Positions 14,072 through 17,348 of a stretch of DNA of 18,848 nucleotides are shown in pieces. Origin of the DNA: a virus. The notes beneath the pieces are model-generated. The model was not told the origin of the DNA. It saw only the letters and a program-made list of their open reading frames with translations, and searched no databases. A program made the translations under genes and the position numbers. How positions within the stretch are numbered: position 1 is the first letter of the stretch; each line of letters starts with the position of its first letter. The DNA lies in the IMG/VR virus record IMGVR_UViG_3300009775_000008, positions 1 through 18,848 of that record, one strand, 5' to 3'.

Positions 14072-14701
14072 TTACAATAAATTAAGATTTTTTAAATCTT
14101 TCTTTTCAAGAATTTGAAGAGATATTTTATTTTGTTCAAGAACTTTTTTCATTTTAATTCTATCATTTTCTCTCCAATATCCTTTTATTTCAATATATTG
14201 GTTATAATCTATGATATAAAAATCTGGGGTATAAATTCTTTTAATCCCCGAGTCATCCATCCAGAAAAAAGAATATTTTAAATCTCCGTGCCCGGGTTTA
14301 ATCCATTTCAAATTTAATGAGTCCAAATATTGGGCATATTTAAATTCCCAAGATCCTTGAAGATAAATTATTTTATCCTCCTTTTGGTATGGAATCCATT
14401 TGCAATATCCCCCTTTATGAGAAGTGCTCTGAATTAAACTAAGCTTTTCTTTGGTTTTATTTGAATGGTGTTTCCCAAAAAAACTCGGGATAGCCTTTCC
14501 ACTATTTAAAGAGTCTTTTAATGATTTCGAATATTTTTGAACTCTTTCATCAGTTTCTTTTTTAAGCCCCTTATTCCAATTTTCCCTTCCCTTAAAACGA
14601 TTTATAGGAATTTTTCCATTTCTATGAATTAAACAATGAGAAAAATGGGCATTTAAAGAATTTTGTTTTCTAAACTCTTTCCCGCATTTGCAAATATACA
14701 T
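14072..14701 (-). CDS. homing-endonuclease-like protein: N-terminal C2H2-type Zn finger + C-terminal PD-(D/E)XK nuclease motif; paralog of 16746..17348
   Basis: 209 aa. The N-terminus CKCGKEFRKQNSLNAHFSHC (C-x2-C...H-x3-C) is followed by NKGLKKETDERV. The C-terminus YTPDFYIIDYNQYIEIKGYW carries PD...(E)IK. The stop is 3 nt from the tRNA-Leu 5' end. It shares about 45-50% identity by eye with 16746..17348. Confidence 0.55.
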   Translation of the reverse strand: MYICKCGKEFRKQNSLNAHFSHCLIHRNGKIPINRFKGRENWNKGLKKETDERVQKYSKSLKDSLNSGKAIPSFFGKHHSNKTKEKLSLIQSTSHKGGYCKWIPYQKEDKIIYLQGSWEFKYAQYLDSLNLKWIKPGHGDLKYSFFWMDDSGIKRIYTPDFYIIDYNQYIEIKGYWRENDRIKMKKVLEQNKISLQILEKKDLKNLNLL

Positions 14702-14789
14702 TTTTAATTTATATATCTTCGCAAACGCCCTAGATTATAACAAATATTCAAAGAACGATAAAAAAGAAAAGGGGAAGATTAAACTTCCC

Positions 14790-15500
14790 CTCCGAGAACC
14801 TTGCGCTGGTTGCTCTTGCTCACGGATGCCATTCCTACATTGGCTGAAGCTAGCCGAAAGGTCCAATATGCCGGAACCTTGCAGTACACCGATTTTGTTT
14901 AGGAGAAAGGTTTAAAATCCCCAAGCTGAAAAATCAGAAACGTAAAAACCCTACCACCGCATCTGTCTCGTGGCCAGACCCCTATCACGCCGTGGAAGCG
15001 GTACCCTCATTTTCTTAGGATAAAATGAGAACGCAAAAAACCCCTATTTACTCATAGGTGAGGACCATCTCATGCTCTGGTCGGCAGGCATCTTCGGACC
15101 TCCTTCTGAAGGAGTATCCTTAGGGCTACCCCATCGCGGACTTTCACCGCGCATCTACCCTTTATGATCACTATTATGATAGAGCCATCCTTTCTTGTAG
15201 CCGGTGGGACGGGGCGTATAAATTAATCCGAGAATCCTTGCAAGGGTGTTATCTGGGGGATTTTGCAATCCCCGTTGGGTGGCCGTCATTACTGAATTTT
15301 TTAGGGCACCAGTTGCCTGGCTTTTAACCCCAGCCCTCGCTCTTTCGAGCATATTATTCAGCATTGGACTGGCATTACATCTACGAGAGATGAAGAGCAC
15401 CCCGCAGGATAACTCTCATTTGCCATTCGTGGAGACATCGCTGTCCCGGGACTACCTTAGGACCGTTATAGTTCGAAGTATCCCTTAGCTTACTACGGAT
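14790..15500. ncRNA. large GC-rich, hairpin-dense noncoding region: candidate large ornate structured RNA (GOLLD/ROOL-like class?) or otherwise an unclassified ribozyme or intron-like RNA
   Basis: About 700 nt whose GC content is far above the flanking DNA, with no ORF consistent with the neighbouring genes. There are many perfect local hairpins, e.g. ggggatt-ttgc-aatcccc (15255-15272), gctc-tttc-gagc (15338-15349), ctcct-tctga-aggag (15099-15113), cgcgg-tgaaagt-ccgcg on the minus strand, and ccttgcaagg (15235-15244). It is flanked by a homing-endonuclease gene and tRNA-like genes. I saw no tmRNA tag ORF, no RNase P P4 strands and no group I P7 R/S elements. Confidence 0.4.
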
Positions 15501-15601
15501 TGGAAAATCAAAATATGAAAGATCGTTTATTTGTAATAATAGAACAAATATACAAAAAGATCTGATTGAATAAAAATGTTTTCTGTTAAATTCCCGTTAA
15601 A

Positions 15602-15979
15602 TTATTTTTCTTTTTCAAGAAGAAATAATGGGACTTTACCTTGGAGAATTTCATAAAAATCAGTTCCCGCTTCAAGCATGTCAATATCGCCTTTATCATA
15701 ATACCATGCTATTTCAGATGGAAACTCTTCTAATCTTTTAAAAAGTTTCATCAATTCTCTTGCAGATGCTGTATTAAAATATTCTAAGTATACAGACATC
15801 TTTAAGAGATAATTTGGGGATTTTCGATACCTATCAAAGAAAGAATGTAGTTCTTCAAAAAATTTAGAAGCATCTTCTGGGATACATCTTCCTTCGATAT
15901 TCAAAATTCCCTTATTGCCATTAAAATAAACATGAGGGGTTTTAGGGGTTGCCTCATATTCGAGGATTTCAAAAACCAT
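15602..15979 (-). CDS. hypothetical protein, DUF1987/SiaC-like; paralog of 16310..16732
   Basis: 125 aa. ATPKTPHVYFNGNKGILNIEGRCIPEDASKFFEEL resembles the SiaC/DUF1987 N-terminal pattern (TP.V.fd...g.l.I.G.S.PE....Fy.p). The similarity to 16310..16732 (ISTPKVFLDPELGELEIIGRSYPSNSLEFWKPI) is clear. Confidence 0.45.
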   Translation of the reverse strand: MVFEILEYEATPKTPHVYFNGNKGILNIEGRCIPEDASKFFEELHSFFDRYRKSPNYLLKMSVYLEYFNTASARELMKLFKRLEEFPSEIAWYYDKGDIDMLEAGTDFYEILQGKVPLFLLEKEK

Positions 15980-16010
15980 AGTACTTTTATTTTATTTATC
16001 CCTCAATTTG

Positions 16011-16080
16011 CCCGACGGATGGGATTCGAACCCATGTTTCCGGCTGGTGCCGGAGTCCTAGGCCACTAGACGACCGAAGT
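16011..16080 (-). pseudogene. degenerate tRNA-Glu-like element A: lacks a 5' acceptor strand and has a 4-6-nt anticodon loop
   Basis: Minus read (TC) GTC TAGTGGCCTAG GAC T CCGGC ACCA GCCGG AAAC ATGGG TTCGAAT CCCAT CCGTCGG G. The D-arm and T-arm are canonical and Glu-like, like the 17588..17665 gene. The anticodon stem CCGGC/GCCGG encloses only ACCA. No CCGACGG partner for the 3' acceptor strand exists upstream. Confidence 0.35.
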
Positions 16081-16179
16081 TAACCCCGTAGATCTCCCTG
16101 CCAGGATTTCTTTAGAGACCACCCATATACCCCCTACTGATCTGGCAGGACCATTCAGGAATACGCCAGGTGGATTTAG

Positions 16180-16262
16180 TCGTGAGTACGGGGGTCGAAC
16201 CCGTGTTTCCGGCTTGAAAGGCCGACGTACTAAGCATACGCAACCAACTATACGAACCCACG
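16180..16262 (-). pseudogene. tRNA-Glu(UUC)-like element B with an 11-nt insertion in the D-loop; possibly nonfunctional
   Basis: Minus read CGTGGGT TC GTA TAGTTGG[TTGCGTATGCT]TAG TAC G TCGGC CTTTCAA GCCGG AAAC ACGGG TTCGACC CCCGT ACTCACG A. The acceptor is 7 bp (one G-U). The anticodon loop is C-U-UUC-A-A, and the T-arm is good. The D region is 28 nt instead of about 17. Removing the bracketed 11 nt restores a GTA/TAC D-stem. It lies immediately downstream of an intrinsic terminator. Confidence 0.35.
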
Positions 16263-16285
16263 AAAAAAGCTCGAATCTCGAGCTT
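16263..16285 (-). terminator. intrinsic terminator downstream of gene 16310..16732
   Basis: Stem aagctcga (16267-16274) / tcgagctt (16278-16285) with a 3-nt loop. On the minus strand it is followed by TTTTTTCG. Confidence 0.5.
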
Positions 16286-16309
16286 TCCTATTCAATACAT
16301 TAGAATTTA

Positions 16310-16732
16310 TTAAAAGGAAGCTACCTTAATAATTTTAAAAGGAAGAGAAATTTCTTCTGAAAAGAATTTAGCTATTTCTTCCATATCACGATCTTTTTCC
16401 TCGCAAAGCCATTCAATGGATATAACCTGATGCTTTTCCTTAAATATCTTCAAAAGACCATAAAGAAATTTTAGAGATGAAGAATTAAGATACTCAAATC
16501 CAATCTTTATGGAGAATTTTCTTGAAGGTATTTCAGAAATGCTATCCAAAATGGGCTTCCAAAATTCTAAAGAATTACTGGGATATGATCTTCCTATAAT
16601 TTCAAGTTCCCCTAATTCTGGATCTAAGAAAACTTTAGGTGTTGATATTGTAGCCGGAATATTCATCTCTAAAAGTTTTAATTTCCATAGTAAATATACA
16701 AAAAAAATCAATAGGAAAAAAACTTTTTTCAA
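16310..16732 (-). CDS. hypothetical protein, DUF1987/SiaC-like paralog with an N-terminal hydrophobic segment
   Basis: 140 aa. The N-terminus MKKVFFLLIFFVYLLWKL is hydrophobic (signal or anchor). It is then homologous to 15602..15979. Confidence 0.45.
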   Translation of the reverse strand: MKKVFFLLIFFVYLLWKLKLLEMNIPATISTPKVFLDPELGELEIIGRSYPSNSLEFWKPILDSISEIPSRKFSIKIGFEYLNSSSLKFLYGLLKIFKEKHQVISIEWLCEEKDRDMEEIAKFFSEEISLPFKIIKVASF

Positions 16733-16745
16733 AAAATTTCGTTCA

Positions 16746-17348
16746 TCAAGGATAAAAATCTTCTATTTCCTTTATAGATTTTAAAATTATTAATTTGGCA
16801 GGAAATTGCCCCCATTTAAATTTATCTTTTTCTTTTTCCATCCCTTTTATCTCGATCCATATATTTAAATCAGGAAGAAAGAAATCTGGATAATATGTAA
16901 AAAATCTGTCATTAAATTTATATTTAAACCCCCATTTATTTGTATTCTTCACCCATTTAATATTTAAAGAAATAAGATGATCCACAAATTTTTTCTCCCA
17001 TGAACTATCTAGCCATATTTTTTGATCATTATAAAAAATATATTGGCCTTTCCATTTATTAGAGCCGGATCTCATTCCACCGGTTTTTCCTTTTAAAGAC
17101 CTAGATAATTTTTCCTTATGATCACGAGAAAGATGTTTTCTCCAATTAGGATGATGTTCCCCGCTATTAATTATAGAAAGTTTTTTTACTCTTTCGTCTG
17201 TTTCCTTGGTTAATCCTTTATTCCAAGCTCTTTTTTCCCCAAATCTATCAATAGGAGGTTTACCTTTCCTATGAATTAAACAATGGGAAAAATGAGCATT
17301 TAAAGAGTTGTTTTTTTCAAATTTTTTACCGCATTCGCAAACGAACAT
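16746..17348 (-). CDS. homing-endonuclease-like protein (Zn finger + PD-(D/E)XK); paralog of 14072..14701
   Basis: 200 aa. CECGKKFEKNNSLNAHFSHC...NKGLTKETDERV...YYPDFFLPDLNIWIEIKG. It has the same architecture as 14072..14701 and sits between tRNA genes. Confidence 0.55.
   Translation of the reverse strand: MFVCECGKKFEKNNSLNAHFSHCLIHRKGKPPIDRFGEKRAWNKGLTKETDERVKKLSIINSGEHHPNWRKHLSRDHKEKLSRSLKGKTGGMRSGSNKWKGQYIFYNDQKIWLDSSWEKKFVDHLISLNIKWVKNTNKWGFKYKFNDRFFTYYPDFFLPDLNIWIEIKGMEKEKDKFKWGQFPAKLIILKSIKEIEDFYP

Follow-up and report, generated by a model that had tools for sequence, protein, structure and literature searches.

Homing endonucleases residing in phage tRNA clusters are known from SegB, which recognizes the T-psi-C motif of tRNAs and spreads the neighboring tRNA genes (PMC2330249); it also drives a segmental amplification of tRNA-Tyr that leads to escape from Septu, and its homologs show enrichment in the vicinity of tRNAs (PMC13096335). 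Six catalytic classes of homing endonucleases are recognized, including PD-(D/E)XK, represented by I-Ssp6803I, and EDxHD, represented by I-Bth0305I (PMC6083498, PMC3424549); I-Ssp6803I, which PMC3424549 lists, is the reference PD-(D/E)XK enzyme. Further, F-CphI from a cyanophage is a free-standing homing endonuclease with the Endo VII catalytic motif (PMC6083498). Here, we describe two genes, HEG1 and HEG2, from the tRNA cluster of a large uncultured phage, within an 18,848-nucleotide stretch of its DNA (IMG/VR record IMGVR_UViG_3300009775_000008, positions 1 to 18,848; hereinafter the window), which are probably free-standing homing endonuclease genes of one family. From their sequences, the products are best explained as predicted metal-dependent nucleases of the T7 endonuclease I type, joined to a sequence-reading module.

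HEG1 and HEG2 are intact open reading frames (ORFs; all coordinates are collected in Table 1) and are paralogs of each other, with 47% identity across 191 aa (BLASTP E=2e-45). The motifs that an initial annotation of this DNA had noticed in both, namely a finger, an NKGLxKETDERV segment and a PD...EIK signature, all recur in this alignment, as M(Y/F)xC(K/E)CGKxF...SLNAHFSHCLIHR, WNKGLxKETDERV and Y(T/Y)PDF...IEIKG. That annotation also correctly had HEG1 abutting a tRNA-Leu gene, although the intervening gap is not 3 nt but the 2 nt ('TC') that separate the HEG1 stop codon (14072-14074) from tRNA-Leu(CAA). HEG2 starts 39 nt downstream of tRNA-Leu(GAG), with tRNA-Glu and tRNA-Tyr lying further up and the same strand being used throughout. 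Its other neighbor is a SiaC-like ORF (16310-16732), followed by weak tRNA-like sequences; hence, the initial annotation's placement of HEG2 between tRNA genes holds only loosely.

From the N- to the C-terminus, HEG1 displays a predicted zinc finger with the ligands C4, C6, H19 and C23 (CxC-x12-H-x3-C), a NUMOD3-like linker and a T7-endonuclease-I-like PD-(D/E)XK nuclease domain with the residues E119, P159-D160 and E171-x-K173. In a family alignment of 44 members (A5), C4, C6, H19, C23, E119, P159-D160-F161 and E171-x-K173 are invariant or nearly so. The profile of this alignment matches T7 endonuclease I across T7 residues 7-89 (E=1e-9), such that the T7 catalytic residues E20, D55, E65 and K67 align with family counterparts, all four of which are kept; further PDB matches of the profile are to classical C2H2 fingers. 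The presence of the catalytic E...(P)D...(D/E)xK constellation on a restriction-endonuclease-like fold places these proteins in the PD-(D/E)XK superfamily, and the two proteins additionally match the PHROG family 15137, labelled 'endonuclease' (1e-10 and 4e-12). The domain assignments are based on the family profile, on homologs that pass Pfam and on the predicted structure. As single proteins, HEG1 and HEG2 yield only sub-threshold Pfam matches, to NUMOD3, Phage_endo_I, DUF7487, TnsA_N and a C2HC finger: against Phage_endo_I (PF05367; gathering score 29.1 bits) HEG1 reaches 14.3 bits, with no match listed for HEG2, and against NUMOD3 (PF07460; gathering score 20.4 bits) they score 17.1 and 18.4 bits respectively, each slightly under. 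Among the homologs, P0027 (29.4 bits) and an ORF of LR756508 (30.2 bits) pass Phage_endo_I, and P0013 (21.1 bits) and P0066 (28.5 bits) pass NUMOD3. The check by profile searches that the initial annotation had proposed thus came out as predicted, with the A5 profile matching T7 endonuclease I. HEG1 and HEG2 are better regarded as a diverged sister group to the T7 endonuclease I family than as its curated members.

The finger ligands of both proteins, predicted as C-x1-C-x12-H-x3-C with an alternative H at x2, have as their sole Pfam finger match a weak one to the C2HC model (12.9 bits); the ligand pattern of the classical C2H2 finger (PF00096/PF13894) is C-x2-4-C-x12-H-x3-5-H. Multi-finger homologs with CxxC spacing pass zf-C2H2 and zf-C2H2_4, DUF7487 is also passed by the more canonical homologs, and the number of fingers per member ranges from one to at least three. 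Some remote relatives have just the finger module in common and carry a Vsr/DUF559 nuclease instead; such combinations of the finger with a different nuclease are the exchange of modules that homing endonucleases typically show. The Pfam search of HEG1 and HEG2 returned no GIY-YIG domain, placing them outside the Seg class; likewise, they have neither the EDxHD motif nor a Vsr/DUF559 Pfam match of the I-Bth0305I class, nor detectable sequence or structure similarity to the I-Ssp6803I type (PF11645). Foldseek gave weak matches, a single-sequence search of the PDB gave only marginal matches to T7 endonuclease I (E=0.03) along with a spurious one to an antibody, and an NCBIfam search gave nothing meaningful. 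Comparison scores with known nucleases were 8.8 for TnsA, 6.7 for Bax1, 6.2 for the I-Bth0305I catalytic domain, 5.7 for Vsr and 3.6 for T7 endonuclease I, the last being low, as expected for a domain-swapped dimer. The proposal in the initial annotation that this architecture lies outside the classical families of homing endonuclease genes is accurate for the branch, with its T7-endonuclease-I-like core and C2H2-like finger, but not for PD-(D/E)XK as such, which is a recognized class (PMC6083498).

Relatives of the locus were retrieved from viral and metagenome collections using the 3' halves of the two neighboring tRNAs as opposed to the HEGs themselves, and genes and tRNAs were mapped on every retrieved locus (numbered with the prefix L). 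Both genes are present in the window, L003-L008 and L056; HEG1 occurs without HEG2 in L018, L053 and L057, whose SiaC proteins are 98-100% identical to those of the window; and both are absent from L022, L024 and L055, where MVP is 98% and SiaC125 97-98% identical to the window. L020, a more distant relative, lacks HEG1 and has a HEG2 ortholog at 60% identity. With all these combinations on record, HEG1 and HEG2 therefore assort independently. Flanks or flanking genes of the polymorphic contigs are 97-100% identical, which is the presence/absence pattern of homing genes; this clean polymorphism of both ORFs among near-identical genomes is what the initial annotation had named as the hallmark to look for, and, together with the profile match, it supports the description of the genes as homing-endonuclease-like, with cleavage and homing being the predicted activities.

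The empty alleles further allow the inserts to be delimited. The HEG1 insert has a terminator-like hairpin immediately on one side and the first base of tRNA-Leu(CAA) immediately on the other, and in the empty alleles the counterpart of this hairpin directly adjoins the tRNA. The HEG2 insert begins 10 nt past the 3' end of tRNA-Leu(GAG), exact junction mapping places its stop codon 5 nt inside the insert, and its flanks are 98-100% identical to within 50 nt. The junctions of both inserts are thus resolved to the base and fall at tRNA edges or close to them; with the tRNAs left intact, these are discrete intergenic insertions. Each cassette carries the leader motif GATATATAAAnTAAAA directly 5' of the ATG; this leader is common to all HEG1 and HEG2 orthologs, is otherwise rare within the window and, in HEG2, has its ATATATAAA box at 17357-17365. 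Sites detected by a sigma-70 promoter scan were no more frequent than in shuffled controls. Frameshifted and truncated alleles of both genes are present in metagenomes, with assembly error being a possible source.

The two genes are also linked to particular alleles of the adjacent tRNAs. All HEG1-plus contigs of the close clade have one tRNA-Leu(CAA) allele followed by an 89-nt trailer, whereas all HEG1-minus contigs have an allele that differs strongly in the D-arm, the anticodon stem and the variable arm and is followed by another trailer; the 3' 28 nt of the tRNA are identical between the two. The upstream 430 nt are only 73% identical as opposed to 88-98% elsewhere, and the HEG1-linked divergent block extends over approximately 13893-15190 (~1.3 kb), including the tRNA-Leu(CAA) allele. 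Judging by its sequence, this block is of the kind that co-conversion from a diverged donor would leave. At HEG2, G3 and T75 of tRNA-Leu(GAG) (window positions 17469 and 17397) are found in 8/8 HEG2-plus contigs, and A3 and C75 in 9/9 HEG2-minus contigs. G3 and T75 each convert a Watson-Crick pair to G.U and are function-preserving; along with those of tRNA-Leu(CAA), these HEG-linked differences are candidates for target-site immunity. The T-stem polymorphism of tRNA-Leu(GAG) was also considered as a tracker of HEG2 across distant relatives; there it fails, L021 having the T without HEG2.

Beyond this clade, an exhaustive hidden Markov model search with a cutoff of E<=1e-30 recovered representatives of 501 clusters built at 50% identity, indicating a family of at least that many clusters; at E<=1e-10 it recovered 5,958 cluster representatives, partial and finger-only matches included. 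No characterized member of the family was found. A homolog is present in only 39 of 50,697 phage records. These are scattered across T4-like phages that infect Escherichia, Citrobacter, Acinetobacter, Aeromonas and Stenotrophomonas, the Ackermannviridae, and huge phages from metagenomes. Nearly all of the copies inspected (25 of 26) have a tRNA on the same strand within 1 kb, mostly within 200 nt, the sole exception being a Bacillus phage copy that adjoins recA, and many end 0-40 nt 5' of a tRNA or overlap its 5' end. Among copies of the metagenomic clade, a tRNA-Leu is most often the closest tRNA, an observation that is no more than suggestive because these copies are phylogenetically non-independent. 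The most telling findings come from cultured phages. A few T-even phages have a family homolog in precisely the slot that segB, a proven homing endonuclease, holds in T4; in F25 this is the spacer from tRNA-Ile to tRNA-Arg, with both flanks being 94% identical to T4. Moreover, when F25 (Tequatrovirus) is compared with IME341 (Dhakavirus), the tract comprising tRNA-Met, the HEG and tRNA-Arg has 97% identity, with flanks at 70-75%; this tract and the HEG1-linked block both display the marks of co-conversion or lateral transfer. In relatives of the window phage, the same tRNA clusters also contain genes of the Seg-like GIY-YIG and HNH types. Public records name the homologs only as 'endonuclease' or 'resolvase', and several bear the GenBank label 'endodeoxyribonuclease I, Holliday junction resolvase'.

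The ORFs of several family members run into the downstream tRNA, their 3' ends covering 2-38 nt of its 5' end (Table 1). If the two are co-transcribed, RNase P would, in processing the tRNA, strip the stop codon from the nuclease mRNA, which, speculatively, might serve as a built-in limiter of endonuclease expression.

Megablast of window positions 13000-18848 against the 50,697 phage records gave no match; therefore, the window phage has no close cultured relative. The exact HEG1 and HEG2 proteins are found on many metagenomic contigs, mostly from anaerobic digesters. They are also found in a metagenome-assembled genome labelled Candidatus Paceibacterota (NCBI HPI81841.1, HPI81844.1), which is probably a mis-binned phage contig. 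The gene content is phage-like, with a T4 gp30.3-like protein, tRNA arrays, homing endonucleases and IMG/VR viral contigs with the same genes, and its best protein matches are to 'huge phage' assemblies of 460-735 kb.

Taking these observations together, we infer target cleavage, the location of the target, immunity through tRNA polymorphism and gene conversion along the following lines. The reading module would consist of one C2H2-like (CCHC) zinc finger and the NUMOD3-type helix linker. During co-infection, the enzyme would cut the allele lacking the HEG, in or beside the adjacent tRNA-Leu gene, and the break would be repaired from the HEG-carrying genome. Repair would copy a cassette of ~0.65-0.7 kb, comprising the conserved leader and the ORF, together with flanking DNA that includes the linked tRNA allele, and the carrier genome would be protected by the differences in its own tRNA allele. 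Such a mechanism, cutting at a tRNA and carrying a tRNA allele along, matches the precedent of SegB. Several points weigh against it. Neither HEG1 nor HEG2 individually reaches the Pfam gathering scores of the Phage_endo_I, NUMOD3 or zinc-finger models; the tRNA-Leu(GAG) polymorphism tracks HEG2 within the close clade only; and the link between HEG and tRNA allele could equally simply reflect descent from single insertions as opposed to immunity. In addition, HEG1 orthologs stay beside tRNA-Leu(CAA) down to 62% protein identity, a fixed position that also fits long-term vertical retention or domestication.

The last of these leads to the best-surviving alternative, which overlaps with the homing reading and which we regard as rather unlikely: that the genes are domesticated nucleases of homing-endonuclease origin, kept for a benefit to the phage such as the duplication or exchange of tRNAs against tRNA-targeting defenses. 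The tRNA-Tyr amplification by SegB offers a precedent (PMC13096335). The persistence of HEG1 with intact catalytic residues beside tRNA-Leu(CAA) in relatives at 62-67% identity speaks for it, as do duplicated tRNAs (Glu(TTC), Leu(CAA) and Pro(TGG)) in L011, L020 and L040 and the tRNA-like sequences at 16011-16249. However, very close relatives lack one or both genes and broken alleles circulate, and therefore no strong requirement for the HEGs is apparent; nor is tandem HEG-tRNA amplification seen in the window. A SegB-like benefit from tRNA amplification against tRNA-cleaving defenses would nevertheless be compatible with homing as a second role.

We consider it improbable that these genes are accessory cassettes moved by general recombination, with host DNA, host tRNA genes or RNA as the target of the nuclease and the tRNA site acting as a permissive and recombination-prone region. 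The tRNA clusters do hold variable cargo, such as an MVP-like gene that may be present or absent, o192 swapped for ORF146, and Seg-like and HNH genes, and C2H2 fingers can bind RNA too. Against this, the link to tRNAs is tight and family-specific, with ORFs abutting or overlapping the tRNA 5' end in unrelated phage families; a slot is shared with the proven homing endonuclease segB; and the sharp step from 97% to 70% identity at tRNA edges is the product expected of endonuclease-initiated gene conversion.

More improbable still is that they are ordinary recombination or junction-resolving endonucleases with a housekeeping, non-mobile role, even though the nearest sequence relative of the nuclease domain, T7 endonuclease I, is a resolvase and several records annotate homologs accordingly. 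A housekeeping resolvase should be single-copy and universal in its lineage; the window has two paralogs, near-identical genomes do without one or both, and the family is as sparse among phage records as given above. The predicted zinc finger and NUMOD3-like linker are sequence-reading modules typical of homing endonucleases, a family gene is allelic to segB, and T4-like phages already resolve junctions with endonuclease VII. The resolvase annotation is thus unlikely because of paralogy, dispensability, sequence-reading domains and allelism with segB. Finally, it is scarcely credible that the genes are decaying relics of homing endonucleases that no longer cut, since, notwithstanding the frameshifted or truncated metagenomic alleles and the remnants in L040/L041 (59 aa), L026 and Aeromonas phage PX29, both copies in the window are full-length and have lost none of their zinc ligands or catalytic residues, and orthologs at 60-67% identity keep these residues too, implying purifying selection.

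We tentatively entertain a broader proposal, though we are inclined to doubt it in its full extent: the family might constitute a seventh homing-endonuclease lineage, derived from a T7-endonuclease-I-type resolvase, armed with C2H2-type finger arrays as natural 'zinc-finger nucleases' and specialized on tRNA-gene DNA. Within the jumbo-phage clade, class II tRNA-Leu genes would be its main targets, and paralogs would hop from one isoacceptor to another (CAA, GAG, TAA, TAG). Because the adjacent tRNA allele would travel with it, the family would be a main driver of the exchange, duplication and remodeling of tRNA repertoires in large phages. In any event, the T7-endonuclease-I-like PD-(D/E)XK core is a catalytic scaffold different from that of SegB, and a reading head of C2H2-type fingers with NUMOD3 is rare in prokaryotic viruses. 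If the enzymes cut as predicted, a homing-endonuclease lineage would have arisen from a junction resolvase in parallel to F-CphI and Endo VII, engineered zinc-finger nucleases would have a natural counterpart with a variable number of fingers, and there would be a testable route for the movement of tRNA genes between phages. Such movement gains weight since phage tRNAs and SegB are tied to escape from tRNA-cleaving defenses, and the T-even members F25, HEMP5 and IME341 would make the question directly testable in E. coli.

Several other features of the region deserve mention. The non-coding spacer that lies upstream of HEG1 is itself GC-rich, is 73-97% conserved in relatives and has a terminator-like hairpin at its end. 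The initial annotation had spoken of a large ncRNA, which finds no support here: the spacer has no Rfam match at E<=1 and its folding shows no excess stability (z=-0.17). The possibility that it is coding with TAG as a sense codon was rejected, as this yields only a 167-codon low-complexity frame rich in R, G, S and P that is not coding-like. Within the spacer, the window and L020/L037 have a 280-nt module (15227-15504) that L018, L022, L025 and L031 lack. Given that a Ro60/TROVE-like protein is encoded nearby, it is conceivable that the spacer acts as a Y-RNA-like partner. Genes of the Seg-like GIY-YIG+NUMOD3 or HNH+NUMOD3 type flank the TROVE gene in L011, L014, L017 and L025, and these sites are empty in the window. 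The ORF with major-vault-protein (MVP) domains is found in the window, L022 and L055 and is absent at that place from L017, L025, L026, L053 and L057, varying independently of HEG1 status. The SiaC-like ORF at 16310-16732 has two allele classes among close relatives (100% versus ~72% identity). Both weak tRNA-like sequences sit between the two SiaC-like ORFs; the one at 16180-16249 resembles tRNA-Glu(TTC) (80% over 51 nt), and the L011 equivalent of 16011-16249 holds tRNA-Ser(CGA) and tRNA-Glu(CTC). The two may represent tRNAs that are decayed or atypical. Between tRNA-Tyr and a 99-aa ORF lies a 192-aa ORF (17971-18549, minus strand), replaced by an unrelated 146-aa ORF in L018, L022 and L024, which makes it a further swapped cassette of this cluster. 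The tRNA with a CTA anticodon is conserved in L014, L017, L022, L025 and L026, and Acinetobacter phage Apostate has one right beside its HEG homolog. None of the 26 main ORFs ends in TAG (18 TAA, 8 TGA), and TAG may be avoided or reassigned in the window phage.

Table 1. Features of the HEG1/HEG2 region; positions refer to the window unless another locus is named
Feature	Position	Strand	Remarks
HEG1	14072..14701	minus	Intact ORF, 209 aa
HEG2	16746..17348	minus	Intact ORF, 200 aa; domain order as in HEG1; all catalytic and zinc-ligand residues kept
tRNA-Leu(CAA)	13982-14069	minus	ARAGORN and Rfam; HEG1-linked allele
tRNA-Leu(GAG)	17388-17471	minus	ARAGORN and Rfam; HEG2-linked allele
89-nt trailer	13893..13981	minus	HEG1-plus haplotype only; right end of the HEG1-linked divergent block
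HEG1 insertion	14070..14757	minus	~688 nt, +/-2 nt owing to a T run; relative to the empty alleles L022, L024, L055
HEG1 leader	14702..14757	minus	Part of the inserted cassette; box GATATATAAAnTAAAA, with ATATATAAA at 14708-14716
Terminator-like hairpin	14768..14793	minus	GGAGGGGAAG..CTTCCCCTTT followed by a T run; left junction of the HEG1 insertion
HEG2 insertion	16741..17378	minus	638 nt = 30-nt leader + ORF + 5 nt; replaces 8 nt (TAATTATT) of the empty site
Weak tRNA-like sequences (two)	16011-16080 and 16180-16249	minus	Rfam 32.7 and 32.4 bits; not called by ARAGORN
Non-coding spacer	14702-15601		900 nt; GC ~0.47-0.50 versus 0.27-0.33 in neighboring genes
SiaC-like (PF09345) ORFs, two paralogs	15602-15979 and 16310-16732	minus	Inside the tRNA cluster
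MVP ORF	11214-13760	minus	848 aa; MVP_shoulder and Vault_3 domains; immediately downstream of tRNA-Leu(CAA)
tRNA with anticodon CTA	9936-10008	minus	Amber suppressor; ARAGORN 'tRNA-Pyl'; Rfam tRNA 68.9 bits
Ro60/TROVE-like protein	6876-8576	minus	566 aa; conserved across relatives
Cold-shock-domain protein	6613-6807	minus	Follows the TROVE-like gene; conserved across relatives
ORF overlapping tRNA, L002 (phage F25)	4004-4663		Family member
ORF overlapping tRNA, L028 (PhaxI)	2492-3133		Family member
ORF overlapping tRNA, L043 (Kuja)	2875-3672		Family member
ORF overlapping tRNA, L037	6001-6600		Family member

Finally, these genes can be set against the known systems. Like SegB, HEG1 and HEG2 are free-standing, lie in a phage tRNA cluster, are sporadic among relatives and have, as predicted, a NUMOD3-type DNA-binding segment; even the spacing is comparable, segB ending 5 nt before tRNA-Arg and HEG1 2 nt before tRNA-Leu. 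In contrast, SegB has a GIY-YIG catalytic domain, to which the PD-(D/E)XK domain of the HEGs is unrelated, a reverse domain order, with the DNA-binding module of the HEGs being N-terminal and their nuclease C-terminal, and no C2H2-like finger; cleavage by the HEGs is, in comparison, predicted only. Thus, what the HEGs and SegB share is a genomic niche and a behavior, not the ancestry of the catalytic domain. T7 endonuclease I, a structure-specific phage Holliday-junction resolvase encoded by a core gene and devoid of sequence-reading domains, is what the nuclease domain most closely resembles in the profile comparison, with all catalytic counterparts present, whereas HEG1 and HEG2 have the predicted finger and NUMOD3-like linker and are dispensable and mobile. 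I-Ssp6803I, whose natural site lies in a tRNA gene, resembles what is proposed for them as a homing endonuclease built on the restriction-enzyme fold. I-Bth0305I differs in being intron-encoded, with its nuclease at the N-terminus, and in having the EDxHD active site as opposed to E...PD...ExK. The nearest conceptual precedent is F-CphI, in which the domain of a junction resolvase was recruited into a free-standing homing endonuclease, albeit one with the His-Me finger fold of Endo VII and psbA as its target, in place of PD-(D/E)XK. Engineered zinc-finger nucleases, in which a C2H2 array is joined to FokI, similarly fuse C2H2-type fingers to a nuclease of the PD-(D/E)XK fold, but the HEGs are natural phage proteins with a single non-canonical finger (CxC spacing, CCHC ligands). 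In the literature searched, which missed most subscription journals, we found no description of a homing endonuclease that is T7-endonuclease-I-like or carries a C2H2 finger. Our verdict is accordingly that, while tRNA-cluster homing endonucleases as such are known from SegB, the HEG family probably comprises free-standing homing endonuclease genes of an undescribed architecture.

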